This document shows positions 16,766 to 39,740 of a stretch of DNA of 64,000 bases, piece by piece. The translations under genes and the position numbers were made by a program. The first letter of the stretch is position 1; every line of letters begins with the position of its first letter. The notes below the pieces were generated by a model, which saw only the letters and a program-made list of their open reading frames with translations, was not told where the DNA came from and made no database searches. This stretch comes from Candidatus Hodarchaeaceae archaeon (lineage in GTDB: Archaea; Hadarchaeota; Hadarchaeia; Hadarchaeales; Hadarchaeaceae), in contig JASEGJ010000001.1 in the NCBI GenBank assembly GCA_030018135.1, positions 78,298-142,297 of the forward strand. The letters are read 5' to 3'.

Positions 16766-16840
16766 CGGGCCCGGAGGGATTCGAACCCTCGACTCCCGGC
16801 TTAAAAGGCCGGTGCGCTAGCCAGACTGCGCCACGGGCCC
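16766..16840 (-). tRNA. tRNA-Lys(TTT), no intron
   Basis: GGGCCCG acceptor; CCGGC-CT-TTT-AA-GCCGG anticodon arm. Confidence 0.96.
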
Positions 16841-16941
16841 CACATAGGTAGGAAATGGCTGAAAACTTTTTGTATTTATTTTTTTCGTCATTTTAAATTC
16901 ATCACCCCCTGATTTAAGGCTTTCGAGTTTTAAAAAGGAGG

Positions 16942-17042
16942 CGCCCCGGGCGGGATTTGAACCCGCGTCGCCGGCTCGACAGGCCGACATGATTGGCCTT
17001 CGGGCTCAAAGCTCGAATTAGACCCGACTACACTACCGGGGC
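16942..17042 (-). tRNA. tRNA-Asp(GTC) with 26-nt D-loop intron at 21/22 (16993-17018)
   Basis: TCGGC-CT-GTC-GA-GCCGG arm; central helix GGTC/GGCC, bulges TA|A and AA|T; removal restores the normal D-loop AGTCGGGTCTA. Confidence 0.92.
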
Positions 17043-17840: not shown

Positions 17841-17967
17841 TGGGCTGGCAGCGTCCTAGGGCTCCCGCACCCTCTCGGAGTGCAGTACTGCCTAGATCGC
17901 TGGCGGGCTTATCTTCGGCGTTCGGAATGAGAGCCGGAGTTTCCCCGTCGCTATGGCCGCCAACCCA
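17841..17967 (-). rRNA. rrf: 5S rRNA (stand-alone)
   Basis: GGCGGCCATAGCG...CTCATTCCGAAC...AAGCC...AGTACTG; complementary ends TGGGTTGGC/GCCAGCCCA. Confidence 0.95.
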
Positions 17968-18073
17968 TCAAAATTTGGCCCTTATGCTTATAAAAGGATG
18001 AGTAATCCGCAAACGACAATTTTGCAAAATACCCTGTTCGCTGCCGATCCTTGTTGGAACAAAAAGCTTGTGA

Positions 18074-18205
18074 TGGTCCCGCGGGCCGGATTTTCAGTGG
18101 CTCTGCCACGTTTGAACCGGCGACATGTCGGTACCTATCTTTTGGGTCTTTGGCCCGCCTCACGGCGAACAGCCGACCACTCTAACCAGGCTGAGTTACC
18201 GCGGG
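18074..18205 (-). tRNA. tRNA-Tyr(GTA) with three introns: 35/36 (18150-18168), 37/38 (18133-18147), 59/60 (18091-18110)
   Basis: C1-G72 and A73 Tyr identity; encoded CCA; each intron has a BHB; spliced product is a normal 75 nt + CCA. Confidence 0.9.
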
Positions 18206-18242
18206 GACCGAGTAAAGTTAGGATTTTCAAATTCTTAAACCT

Positions 18243-19349
18243 TCAGAAAAAATCATGTAACCTTCGAATCGCATCGAGCTTTTCCCTTCGCTCGAGCTTA
18301 GCGCCATCGAGCGCTCTCTCTAAAATTTCGGTGGTTCGCTGATACGTCGCCTTGTCGACGGGATAGGGCACGCCGTCCTTGCCCCCGTGCGCGAAGCTAA
18401 AACGAATGGGATCCCGCCAAGAGGGCGGCTTGCCGTAAATCAGGTCCGAAACCAAGGCCAAGGCCCTTATCGTCTTCGGCCCTATTCCCTGGATGGCGAC
18501 CAGTTCCTCGTAATTTGAAGGCTGTAGCTCATAAGCACGCTGCAGCGCGGCCATTGTCCGCTCGGTCAACTCTGTAATTCCGTGCTGAGTTGGCATGATG
18601 AGGGTTAGAACTTGAGGCGAGCGCGCTAGGTATTCATCGAGCGACCGCTGTTCTGCCTCTCGAACGTAAACTACTACCCGCCTCGGATCGTCGCGCACGA
18701 GATCTAAACTGGCCTTTCTCGTTTCCTCGCTCTCATGCGCAGTCATATCAAGCACGAGGTCTTCTCTACGATCTCCAGCGATGCCCGAGTGCGGCTCCTC
18801 GACGAAGCTGCGGACGCCCTCGGAGAGCCAGTGATAGCGCCTCGCCAGCCTATCGTGCATACCCTGTTGCACGACCGCCCAGTCGCCGTCCTCGCTGAGC
18901 ACGAAGCAGTGATGGTAGAGCTGGTAGCCGTCCTGCACGCATGCGTTGTCCACCTTGGCCGCCATCCGGCTAGCGTATTTTAGTCTCTCAATCTTTTGAG
19001 AGGATATGGAAAAGACATCGCCGAGCTTCTCTATCTCGCTGGGGGTTCGCCTCGAGACCCTACCCTTCCCCCCGCACACCGCGATGCCCAGCTCATCCGG
19101 CCTTATCGCCTCCTTCAGCGCGCCCATTGTAACGGTGCTCAGTCCCGATGAATGCCAATCATATCCTAACACACAACCAAATGCTTGAAGGAAAAAAGGG
19201 TCGCCCAACCTCCGGAGGAACTCTTGCTTACCGTACTCGTGGACGATAATTTTACTTGTAGCTCCAGCTAGCCTTCTCATTCGGCTGAAAAGCCACGGGG
19301 GGCACCTGCCACCATGCAACGGCAGCTCAGCGATGCCGGTCCTTTTCAT
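18243..19349 (-). CDS. DUF763-family protein
   Basis: LPLHGG, DWHSSG, AAKVDN-QDG-YHH and FSFAHGGKDGVP motifs. Confidence 0.88.
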   Translation of the reverse strand: MKRTGIAELPLHGGRCPPWLFSRMRRLAGATSKIIVHEYGKQEFLRRLGDPFFLQAFGCVLGYDWHSSGLSTVTMGALKEAIRPDELGIAVCGGKGRVSRRTPSEIEKLGDVFSISSQKIERLKYASRMAAKVDNACVQDGYQLYHHCFVLSEDGDWAVVQQGMHDRLARRYHWLSEGVRSFVEEPHSGIAGDRREDLVLDMTAHESEETRKASLDLVRDDPRRVVVYVREAEQRSLDEYLARSPQVLTLIMPTQHGITELTERTMAALQRAYELQPSNYEELVAIQGIGPKTIRALALVSDLIYGKPPSWRDPIRFSFAHGGKDGVPYPVDKATYQRTTEILERALDGAKLERREKLDAIRRLHDFF

Positions 19350-27291: not shown

Positions 27292-29579
27292 ATGAACCCC
27301 ATAGACAAAATTGCTAAACTTTGCGAAAGGAGGCCCCATCTCGTCATCGCTACCGTGGCAATTGTCACTTTGCTCCTCCTTCCGGGAATCCCAAAAATTA
27401 CCACCGAAACTAAAATGGAAACGTTCATACCCAAAGACTATCCATCGATAATGGCCCTTTCCGATGTGGAGAAAACATTTGGCGGGATGCGATACGAATC
27501 CATCTTGGTTGAGACAAAAAATGGCAAGGTAACAGATGCCGGTGCCATAAAATCGCTACTTGGCCTGCAACGAAAAATCCTTGTAGAACCCGCTTTGAAA
27601 GGGTATGCTGTCGAAGTCGAAAGCTATCTAAATTATCTTTTCCCATATATCATGGAAGATAACCAGCTACTGCCCGATGATGAACTTGAGCTGGCCGTGC
27701 AATCCTTTCTTTCCGGGCCGAGCGGCGCAAGTGTGGTCGGTCGATGGATAACCCCAGATCAAAAAATCTGCTTAATGAATGTAAACGTGGGGGCACACCT
27801 AAAATCGCGCGAAGCTGTGGAGAAAACTCAGTATTTTGAGAACTTGGTCAAAAGCTACGCGGCTGAGCATGGGATTTTTGATGCATCTATTACGGGCGGG
27901 TACTCGACCTCCAGAGATATGCAAAAAATTATCGAAGAGGACAACCGAGTCTTGTTGCCCGCTGCTGTGGCAATGATCATCGCAATTTTGGCGTTAGCAT
28001 TTCGTCGCGTTACCGATGTCGTTTTACCGTTTGTAGTCATTGCCCTAGCGGCGATATGAGTCCTCGGTATGATGGGCCATTTAGGCATCGTATTCACGAC
28101 CGTAGCCGTCGCGGTCCTCCCCCTCTTAATGGGGATAAGCATTGCCTACACTATACACATCATCAGCCGCTACAACGAGGAGAGGTCGAATGGTAAAAAT
28201 GCGGGCGAGGCCGCCGTATCGAGCATAAAGAACATGGGCACTGCCGTATTCCTAACGGCTGCGACGACCGCCATAGGCTTTGCCTCCTGGCTTATCTCGG
28301 ACCTGCCGCCGCTCCGCGATTTCGGCCTGCTCTGCATGTTGGGTATAATGTTCAGCTTTGCCCTCACCGTAACGCTACTGCCGGCGTTTTTGGTCATTCG
28401 AGACGGGAAAAAAGGGACCAAGAAAACCAAGGGGACGCAAAGGCTGGGCAGGTCGGCGCTGGACAGGGGATTAGTGAGGATCGCGACAATGACCAAACTT
28501 CACCCCAAGGGGGTTGTCGCAGTAGCTGGCGCGCTCACGGCAGTTGCGCTGGTCCTGACAACTCAAACTACTACTGCCATCTCATTTGAGGAACTCCTGC
28601 CAAGCGGGGTCGAATCAATCAGGACCAGCGATGAAATCAGGCAAAATTTCGGCGGTCAGGATCTCATCATGGTTCTGGTCAGGGGCGACGCGACCGATCC
28701 CAAAGTCCTCGAGACGATGGTATGGCTGGAACAGCATGTTCGCTTGGATAACAGAAATGTTAAAGGCGAGAGGGTTTACATAACGCGCGCGTACAGCGTT
28801 GCCGACATGGTGTTGATGGCCAGCGCAGGCGCCATACCGCGGACCTCGCAGGAGGTGGCAGCGATCCTTGAAAACCTCAGGCACCAAACACCCCACGTCG
28901 ACAGGCTCGTGACCTCCGATAATAACAAAACCATCGCGCTGTTCCACTGCGACGCCCGAAGCGATGCGGAGCTTAAGCTCACCGCCGACATCGTCAGAGA
29001 TTGGATCGGCCAGTTGCCTGATAACAGAGCCGAATTCGTGGCCACCGGGACGCCAGTCGTGGCCGCGGATCTGCTCTCGAAAATACCGCAGGATGCCCTT
29101 AACACCACTATGATGGCGCTCGCCCTATGCGCGGTGGTGCTGTGCATCGTGTTTAAGAGCATTGGAATGGGCTTAATTGCCATGGTGCCGATGGGTTTGG
29201 CACTGACGTGGCAGTTCGGCACATTTTACCTGCTCGATGTCCCCCTTAACGTGATCACGGTGCTGATCTCCGCTCTCCTCGTAGGCATCGGCATAGACTT
29301 CTCAATCCATACTACCCACCGCTATCTGGAGGGGGTGAGAGATCGCCAGCTTAAACCGGAGGGGGCTGTGCACGCTACCGTGCTCCACGTTGGCAGGGCG
29401 CTCCTAGCAGCTGCTGCGACCACCTGCGGTGCCTTCGGTTTGCTTGCGCTCTCGAGGGTGCCAATAATGAGACCTTCGGCAGCATGACAGCGCTCGCGAT
29501 ACTCTACTGCATGCTCGCGGCGCTGCTGGTTTTGCCCTCGCTACTTGTCGCCTATGCGGGACGGAGGATGGTTAACTAA
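27292..29579 (+). pseudogene. MMPL/RND-family transporter, disrupted
   Basis: In-frame TGA at 28057-28059 (ALAAI*VLGMM); frameshift near 29472 after which TFGSMTALAILYC...LVLPSLL continues; GIGIDFSIH motif. Confidence 0.82.
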
Positions 29580-30031: not shown

Positions 30032-30154
30032 TGGTGGGGTCGCTGGGATTCGAACCCAGGTCCCTGGCTTTTTTGCCCGACCTTGTCCCATTTGGCAGAC
30101 CATTGAGAACTTGATCTTAAGCCAGAAGGATAGGCCAAGCTACCCCACGACCCC
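30032..30154 (-). tRNA. tRNA-Pro(TGG) with two introns: 33/34 (30091-30118) and 37/38 (30070-30086)
   Basis: Pro-type body GGGGTCGTGGGGTAGCTTGG; 4-nt middle exon TGGG; BHB at both introns; encoded CCA. Confidence 0.9.
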
Positions 30155-31510: not shown

Positions 31511-31618
31511 TGGAGCCCCGGGTGGGCTTTGAACCCACGACCTACTGATCGCTTGCCGCCTGGTTACAAGTTTCGACAGCTCACCTTCAGTCGCTCTACC
31601 AGGCTGAGCTACCGGGGC
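31511..31618 (-). tRNA. tRNA-Thr(TGT) with two introns: 30/31 (31572-31587) and 37/38 (31550-31564)
   Basis: Spliced arm ACTGA-CT-TGT-AA-TCAGT; helices CGAC/GTCG and CTTG/CAAG with 3-nt bulges; U73 + CCA. Confidence 0.92.
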
Positions 31619-33787: not shown

Positions 33788-33906
33788 TGCCGGGGGCGGG
33801 ACTCGAACCCGCGATCTCAGGATTTCTCACATCATGGTTGATCAGCACTCACAGCCAGTGGTTTGGGCTATGAGTCCTGCGCTTTAACCAGCTAAGCTAC
33901 CCCGGC
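33788..33906 (-). tRNA. Elongator tRNA-Met(CAT) with 45-nt intron at 37/38 (33824-33868)
   Basis: GCCGGGG acceptor; CAGGA-CT-CAT-A|...|A-TCCTG; helix CTCA/TGAG; bulges TA|G and AA|A. Confidence 0.92.
33829..33856 (-). ncRNA. Putative intron-encoded box C'/D' (K-loop) methylation guide targeting its own C34
   Basis: GGCTGTGAGT-G-CTGA-TCAACC-ATGATGT; guide pairs with ACTCATAGCC; fifth nt upstream of the D box pairs with C34. Confidence 0.65.
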
Positions 33907-39643: not shown

Positions 39644-39740
39644 GCGGCCGTGGTCCAGCCTGGTTAGGGCGTTAAGCGCCGCCAAAGGACCCAGGCTCCC
39701 CAAGCCTGTGGCGCGGGTTCGAATCCCGCCGGCCGCACCA
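39644..39740 (+). tRNA. tRNA-Gly(CCC) with 20-nt D-loop intron at 21/22 (39667-39686)
   Basis: GCGGCCG acceptor; helix TGGT/GCCA, bulges TA|G and AA|G, inner GGCG/CGCC; encoded CCA; unusual C33. Confidence 0.9.

Follow-up and report, generated by a model that had tools for sequence, protein, structure and literature searches.

A tRNA-Tyr gene of a Hadarchaeota archaeon with three probable BHB introns, one of them inside the anticodon

The window, a stretch of 64,000 nucleotides of DNA that was analysed as a whole, carries on its minus strand, at 18205–18074, what is very probably a real and functional tRNA-Tyr(GUA) gene of a Hadarchaeota archaeon, interrupted by three protein-spliced BHB introns, as judged from the sequence of the gene and of its relatives. 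Taken jointly, the identity of the gene and its intron map are held with the same high confidence. The sequence features that an initial annotation had listed for 18074–18205 are all present at these positions, on the minus strand. The gene is 132 nt long (gene index 1 corresponds to window 18205); its 5′ end is the 7-nt acceptor strand, and its 3′ end is the strand complementary to the acceptor 5′ strand, followed by A and then by CCA. Specifically, exon 1 (18169–18205, minus strand, index 1–37) comprises tRNA positions 1–35, including the acceptor 5′ strand, the D arm, the anticodon-stem 5′ strand, and C32, U33, G34 and U35. It is followed by intron 1 (I1; 18150–18168, minus strand, index 38–56), a 19-nt intron at site 35/36 with a strict BHB and an inner hairpin capped by GTGA, and by a micro-exon, AG (18148–18149, minus strand, index 57–58), which supplies tRNA positions 36 and 37. 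Intron 2 (I2; 18133–18147, minus strand, index 59–73) is 15 nt long and occupies the canonical site 37/38; the sequence alone permits 38/39 equally, and 37/38 is picked by BHB geometry. Exon 3 (18111–18132, minus strand, index 74–95) comprises positions 38–59, including the anticodon-stem 3′ strand, the variable loop, the T-stem 5′ strand, and most of the T loop. Intron 3 (I3; 18091–18110, minus strand, index 96–115) is a 20-nt intron in the T loop, placed at 59/60 by BHB geometry; because of a run of A residues, comparison of sequences alone permits any site from 57/58 to 59/60, and orthologs without I3 read TTCAAAT there. Exon 4 (18074–18090, minus strand, index 116–132) contains position 60, the T-stem 3′ strand, the acceptor 3′ strand, A73, and the CCA (18076–18074).

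The flanks of the gene contain two candidate expression signals, both assigned by reading the sequence. A T-rich run on the minus strand, TTTTTGTT (18058–18065), starts 9 nt past the CCA and is a candidate archaeal terminator, and the A/T-rich TTTAAGAA (18232–18239, minus strand), 27–34 nt upstream of position 1, is a candidate TATA box. The next gene downstream, at a distance of 110 nt, encodes 5S rRNA (17843–17964, minus strand), with tRNA-Asp and tRNA-Lys genes farther downstream on the same strand (16940–17012 and 16766–16840); many relatives likewise have a 5S-like sequence downstream of tRNA-Tyr. A search for sequencing runs containing the locus returned no RNA run (best share for a DNA run, 0.14). 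Of two RNA and two DNA runs then compared with it, the RNA runs gave no match, and the DNA contigs of X1 and X5 contain a gene that is 90–95% similar and spans 18074–18216.

Scripted deletion of I1, I2 and I3 yields a 78-nt product that ARAGORN draws as a flawless tRNA-Tyr(gta), with C1–G72, A73, and an encoded CCA; all stems of the cloverleaf are intact. Removal of the introns restores a canonical cloverleaf, as in the class of BHB introns. In archaea, tRNA-Tyr identity is set by C1–G72, the discriminator A73, and the anticodon GUA, and the spliced product has all three elements. Its body is common to orthologs that ARAGORN names tRNA-Tyr(gta), and exon 1, with its 37 nt, is 100% identical in several relatives. 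The tRNA-Tyr reading proposed in the initial annotation is thus borne out by the Tyr-type body (C1–G72 and A73 in the 78-nt product), by the orthologs that lack I1, and by the existence of a separate tRNA-Asn gene. Similarly, the proposal that removal of I1 joins GT to AG and creates the anticodon GTA across a 2-nt micro-exon agrees with the orthologs lacking I1, which read CTGT-AGA.

BHB motifs were defined in our scan by a 4-bp central helix with a 3-nt bulge 3′ of each central strand, the cut falling after the second bulge base. For I1, the scan finds a central helix GGCT/GGCC with 4/4 pairs (one of them G·U) and bulges GT|T and AA|A, flanked by a 4-bp outer helix (GGTC/GACC) and a 4-bp inner helix (CGCC/GGCG) closed by the GTGA loop. 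A strict hBHBh′ at 35/36, as had been claimed, is present, with an outer helix of 4 bp instead of 3. For I3, the central helix TTCA/TGAA has 4/4 pairs, the outer helix is the 5-bp T stem, and the inner helix is 5 bp long, confirming the strict BHB of the third, 20-nt intron that had been placed at 59/60 in the T loop. For I2, the motif emerges after deletion of I1, with a central helix CTGT/ATAG of 4/4 pairs, an outer helix of 5 bp formed by the anticodon stem, and an inner helix of 1 bp; with I1 still in place, 2/4 central pairs form. The two 3-nt bulges and the 4-bp helix are accordingly found for I1 and I3 in the primary transcript and for I2 after I1 removal, and the outer and inner helices of hBHBh′ are found for I1 and I3, I2 being borderline with its inner helix of 1 bp. 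In the minimum-free-energy fold of the precursor, the outer helix and hairpin of I1 are present along with the complete I3 BHB, and the computed energies of the explicit I1-BHB conformer and of a cloverleaf-type conformer are close, at −47.2 and −45.9 kcal/mol, respectively.

Two statements of the initial annotation about these motifs hold in part. The I1 outer helix does use the first bases of I2, as had been noted, but exon bases 38–40 serve equally once I2 is gone (giving an outer helix of 5 bp), and two relatives carry I1 without I2. The statement that the 37/38 BHB can form only after I1 removal is correct for the correct 5′ site; however, the same helices already give a BHB-like motif in the presence of I1, with the 5′ cut two bases later (GUU/C37).

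In a chance control with 2000 dinucleotide-shuffled versions of the gene, at least one strict BHB is present in 14.4% and at least two in 2.05%, so a BHB motif by itself counts only modestly as evidence; it is the restored cloverleaf and the orthologs that carry the weight. Furthermore, a BHB-guided enumerator gave 60 candidate products, four of which are intron-free tRNAs for ARAGORN (two Tyr(gta), one Asn(gtt) and one Ala(cgc)), and because Tyr, Asn and Ala all appear among them, BHB logic alone leaves the identity unsettled. A blastn-short search of the genome for copies of I1, I2 and I3, with their context, returned the introns themselves and short matches at chance level, and no copies elsewhere.

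Comparison across relatives is decisive for the predicted three-intron structure of the tRNA-Tyr gene. A BLAST search of the gene against 40 relatives gave matches in 39 (40 of 41 genomes when that of the window is counted), from which we assembled a set of 30 orthologous loci from 30 genomes, that of the window included. I1 is absent from 22 of the 30, in which CTGT is followed directly by AGA, and in the other eight an I1-type insertion of 19–26 nt lies exactly between CTGT and AGA; the 37/38 intron is present in 28 of the 30 loci. The exact intron boundaries follow from the precision with which orthologs lack I1. In particular, G006 and G014, two genomes of one genus, have in common a D-loop variant, intron 2, and the T-loop intron, and what separates their genes is precisely the 19-nt block plus one further base. 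Motif-free affine-gap alignment to the spliced sequence merges I1 and I2 into a single insertion and misplaces them, since the 2-nt exon gives no anchor, and an explicit parse was therefore used; one ortholog with a G·U pair in a stem (L014) was read by eye instead.

Across the order, the 5′ part of the gene is matched in 43 of 65 genomes, and the match continues through I1 in 11 of these 43. A pattern search extended to all 66 genomes of the phylum gave 15 matches, distributed over 14 genomes, compared with two for a reversed control pattern. The tRNA-Tyr gene carries I1 in 13 of the 66 genomes, 11 of them in the family of the window and two in another family; the remaining two matches are both in one genome (G020), whose own tRNA-Tyr gene is without I1, and have longer spacers. 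In the two genomes of the other family, G030 and G063, the 35/36 intron occurs without any 37/38 intron and is the sole intron of the anticodon loop, with its outer helix made with exon bases 37–40. As judged from these two genes, the 35/36 intron is therefore autonomous.

The structure of the I1 BHB is maintained across its occurrences. The central helix is paired 4/4 in all 12 I1-bearing genomes scored (the thirteenth, G063, was read by eye), and an inner helix recurs in three different sequence versions, 4 bp long in the family of the window, 6 bp in G030, and 9 bp (one G·U) in G063. Compensatory change is seen in 1 of 12 pairs, and, most pairs being invariant, covariation is a weak test here. 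Of the cells of the I1 BHB, 96.7% are paired, a level also attained in 48 of 500 shuffles; with the partner strand slid, the figure is 20–49%. Phylum-wide, tRNA-Tyr genes are interrupted at five or more sites (26/27, in L029 only; 35/36; 37/38; just after 43; and the T loop), with at most three introns at once seen in any gene (loci L007, L009, L010, L012, L016, L017, L022, L029 and L092–L094).

One competing interpretation is that a single 34-nt intron at the canonical site is removed together with the T-loop intron, leaving a GUU (Asn-like) tRNA, which we consider highly improbable. The anticodon stem and CTGT/ATAG of the primary transcript do make up a BHB-like motif; its bulges are TC|G and GT|A, its central helix has 4/4 pairs, and its outer and inner helices are 5 bp and 1 bp long. 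Its 5′ cut lies two bases into I1 (TC|G), and when this segment (index 40–73) and the T-loop segment, I3, are removed, ARAGORN draws a 78-nt tRNA-Asn(gtt). Because an acceptable BHB for a single 34-nt intron exists, motif logic alone cannot pick between a Tyr and an Asn-like product. The product of that cut, however, has C37 on a Tyr-type body (C1–G72, A73), in place of the purine 37, G1–C72 and G73 of a tRNA-Asn(GUU), and the cut runs counter to the 22 orthologs in which CTGT-AGA is continuous. Moreover, the same cut in orthologs gives GTT, GTG or GTA depending on the genome, the base after CTGT being T, G or A across the I1-bearing genomes; removal of two separate introns from the anticodon loop is favoured because it alone gives a constant anticodon, GTA, across genomes. 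By sequence reading, formation of the I1 hairpin would leave a single unpaired base at the point where the single-intron motif needs a 3-nt bulge. The genome also has a proper tRNA-Asn(GTT) outside the window (C45:63–225, minus strand), with G1–C72, G73 and A37; it contains a 60-nt canonical intron (BHB central helix 4/4, outer helix 7) and a 27-nt T-loop intron, for which the strict scan recognised no BHB. The initial annotation had called for a check for another tRNA-Tyr gene, and genome-wide BLAST and the strict scan found no second Tyr-like gene; the 1.1-Mb genome is 92.94% complete in 45 contigs, so a second copy is possible.

The incompleteness of the genome, together with the measurable rate at which BHB motifs arise by chance, is also what speaks for the idea that this copy is decaying or has lost its function and that its BHB-like motifs are leftovers or accidents. 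This idea is very unlikely to be right, given that all stems of the spliced product are intact, that the I1-bearing form has been kept in 13 genomes with the pairing described above, that the I1-bearing gene occupies the same place upstream of the 5S rRNA as its uninterrupted orthologs, and that in G006, a genome 94% complete in 3 contigs, this gene is the sole Tyr-like match. A further alternative is the use of both splicing paths, in which one precursor would give tRNA-Tyr(GUA) for the most part and, to a lesser extent, a GUU tRNA with the Tyr body, so that alternative splicing changes the anticodon. In formal terms the primary transcript offers both motifs, and the two conformers are similar in computed energy, but a Tyr-charged GUU tRNA would presumably misread Asn codons, and the alternative anticodon is not conserved among orthologs; we regard such dual use as scarcely credible.

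For the three-intron tRNA-Tyr gene, the predicted structures suggest the following course of splicing. The acceptor, D and T arms of the primary transcript would fold, and I3 would form a self-contained BHB that extends the T stem and could be cut at any time. The anticodon-stem 5′ strand and C32–U33 would pair not with their usual partner but with the 3′ part of I1, G37 and the next bases, forming the strict BHB of I1, in which EndA (a single alpha-type subunit, presumably a homotetramer) would cut after U35 and before A36. Ligation by RtcB after I1 excision would create the GUA anticodon. The normal anticodon stem could then form, with C32–U35 pairing with AUAG of I2 to give the canonical 37/38 BHB, and a second round of cutting and ligation would leave the finished loop CUGUAGA. 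We infer cleavage at these sites from the sequence.

Removal of I1 before I2 is structurally implied and seems probable, because a BHB becomes available at the correct 5′ site of I2 only once I1 has been removed, and because the sites are 2 nt apart, so that cutting at the I2 5′ site before I1 ligation would be expected to release AG along with I1. For I1 itself the reverse order is compatible, its BHB being better after I2 removal (outer helix 5 bp). The obligatory order proposed in the initial annotation therefore stands as regards the structural dependence of the I2 BHB on I1 removal and does not extend to I3, which is independent of both. Joint excision of I1, AG and I2 in a single piece was rejected, since the resulting loop would be 5 nt, and the idea that I1 is a small guide RNA was set aside, 19 nt being too short.

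The gene escapes the two annotation tools that we applied. ARAGORN called four tRNA genes in the window and the Rfam tRNA model, at its gathering score, gave six tRNA matches there, in both cases with none at 18205–18074; a permissive Rfam scan of 17900–18400 found nothing tRNA-like. With the T-loop segment retained, ARAGORN finds nothing, and with only that segment removed it reports a "tRNA-Pro(agg)" with a 34-nt intron. When applied to 11 ortholog loci, it named four tRNA-Tyr(gta) (those that are intron-free or have the canonical intron only), misnamed the same spot in three, and missed four multi-intron genes. The expectation that standard annotation would miscall the gene thus holds for ARAGORN and Rfam, which miss it or misname its partly spliced forms, and its scope is these two tools. 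In tRNAscan-SE 2.0, introns are removed iteratively, and the available text of that report notes that some archaeal tRNA introns (two or three) are so close that one must go before the second BHB forms (PMC8450103). With simple tRNA finders that miss such genes or name them Asn or Pro, Hadarchaeota genomes would seem to be without tRNA-Tyr.

The host encodes both enzymes that the predicted splicing calls for, a splicing endonuclease and an RtcB-type ligase. Its EndA, the single PF01974 match of the genome, has 179 aa with N-terminal and catalytic domains, and a phmmer comparison with the homotetrameric enzyme of M. jannaschii gives a full-length alignment (126.6 bits) whose C-terminal half is free of gaps. 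The 5-residue insertion near the catalytic histidine of the ARMAN-2 enzyme is absent from this EndA, and the "L3" loop reported for Hadesarchaea in the accessible part of PMC5829648 was not identified in the phmmer alignment. Because its closest EndA relatives, at 71–80% identity, belong to Hadesarchaea / Candidatus Hadarchaeota, a lineage placed under the kingdom Methanobacteriati, the host is not a member of the crenarchaeal order Thermoproteales. The RtcB gene is present with a score of 520.8 bits; its match lies outside the window (C11:68229–70859, minus strand) and comes in two pieces, covering profile positions 23–50 and 49–426 and separated by about 1.4 kb. The open frame is reported as 874 aa, with one TAA inside the short piece, and the split could be due to an insertion such as an intein. 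The EndA gene (L031:1474–2013, minus strand) shares 4 nt with the start of a 371-aa open reading frame, the two together spanning L031:362–2013; judged by eye from its translation, the product of this frame resembles a class I aminoacyl-tRNA synthetase (Trp/Tyr type).

Multi-intron tRNA genes and the stepwise removal of adjacent introns are already known; what is unusual here is the position. The initial annotation had tied multi-intron tRNAs to Thermoproteales, and the consulted parts of two reports do describe such genes there, with up to three introns (PMC4390854, PMC8450103), but the present host belongs to Hadarchaeota. Like the Thermoproteales genes, which carry as many as three, the tRNA-Tyr gene has BHB introns at both canonical and non-canonical sites and would rely on EndA and a ligase for their removal; unlike them, it is found in Hadarchaeota with one alpha-type EndA gene and has an intron inside the anticodon triplet (35/36) and a 2-nt exon. 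Within the same phylum, disruption of tRNA genes has been reported for Hadesarchaea archaeon YNP_N21, which has an alpha4-type EndA (PMC5829648, in its accessible part); that part gives overall proportions and describes no tRNA-Tyr 35/36 intron. The tRNAscan-SE 2.0 report, in the text available, makes a general statement about prediction (PMC8450103), in comparison with which the present analysis deals with the dependency within one gene, a 2-nt spacer, and a competing mis-splice motif. The available portion of a report on the red alga Cyanidioschyzon merolae, a eukaryote, describes a pre-tRNA-Ile(UAU) with three strict BHB introns (D stem, 37/38 and T loop), of which the 37/38 intron is removed last, as determined by RT-PCR (PMC3728597); in contrast to those of the tRNA-Tyr gene, its introns fold independently, and none is described there as lying inside the anticodon. 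I3 shares its insertion site with an ARMAN-2 intron, which has a relaxed hBH motif, whereas I3 has a strict BHB. In the literature searched, outside which lie the main intron-position surveys, neither this gene, nor any BHB intron within the anticodon triplet, nor tRNA-Tyr introns of Hadesarchaea were found to be described.

The tRNA-Tyr gene leaves the known mechanism of archaeal tRNA splicing unchanged. On the structure proposed here, an anticodon need not be contiguous in the genome, G34–U35 and A36 being joined only by splicing, across a 2-nt exon. Heavily interrupted tRNA genes would also be extended to a lineage with a single alpha-type endonuclease, and the non-canonical introns of this gene keep strict motifs. 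The close alleles with and without the intron are material for the study of intron gain and loss. Tentatively, and with the odds against it in our estimate, the 35/36 intron may be an autonomous BHB intron that has been repeatedly gained or precisely lost inside the tRNA-Tyr anticodon across Hadarchaeota, that is polymorphic within at least five genera, with near-identical alleles differing only by the intron, and that an alpha-type EndA processes despite having none of the loops considered necessary for non-canonical introns. In that case, natural pairs of alleles with and without the intron would allow a direct test of how archaeal tRNA introns arrive and exit, and of whether introns with strict motifs escape the proposed rule of co-evolution between EndA type and intron position. 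The anticodon-splitting site would, furthermore, make splicing compulsory for decoding identity, with a built-in hazard of mis-splicing (GUU).

Double anticodon-loop introns are also found in other tRNA genes of the window. At 30035–30154 (minus strand, 120 nt), the BHB-guided enumerator resolves a tRNA-Pro(tgg) with two such introns, one of 28 nt between positions 33 and 34 and one of 17 nt at 37/38, separated by a 4-nt exon (the anticodon and G37, at about 30087–30090); ARAGORN alone names it "Phe(aaa)". At 31511–31618 (minus strand), introns of 16 and 15 nt flank a 7-nt exon with the anticodon loop of a tRNA-Thr(tgt), which ARAGORN alone names "Ala(agc)". A tRNA-Met(cat) at 33788–33906 (minus strand) has a 45-nt canonical intron, and for a further gene at 39644–39740 (plus strand), called "???" or Gly(ccc) by ARAGORN, the strict BHB scan gave no resolution. 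Elsewhere in the genome, a tRNA-like gene on contig C42 (reverse-complement index 28703–28807), with an anticodon loop that by eye apparently contains GCA (Cys), has a T-loop insertion at the I3 site that ends in the same CTGAAAA.
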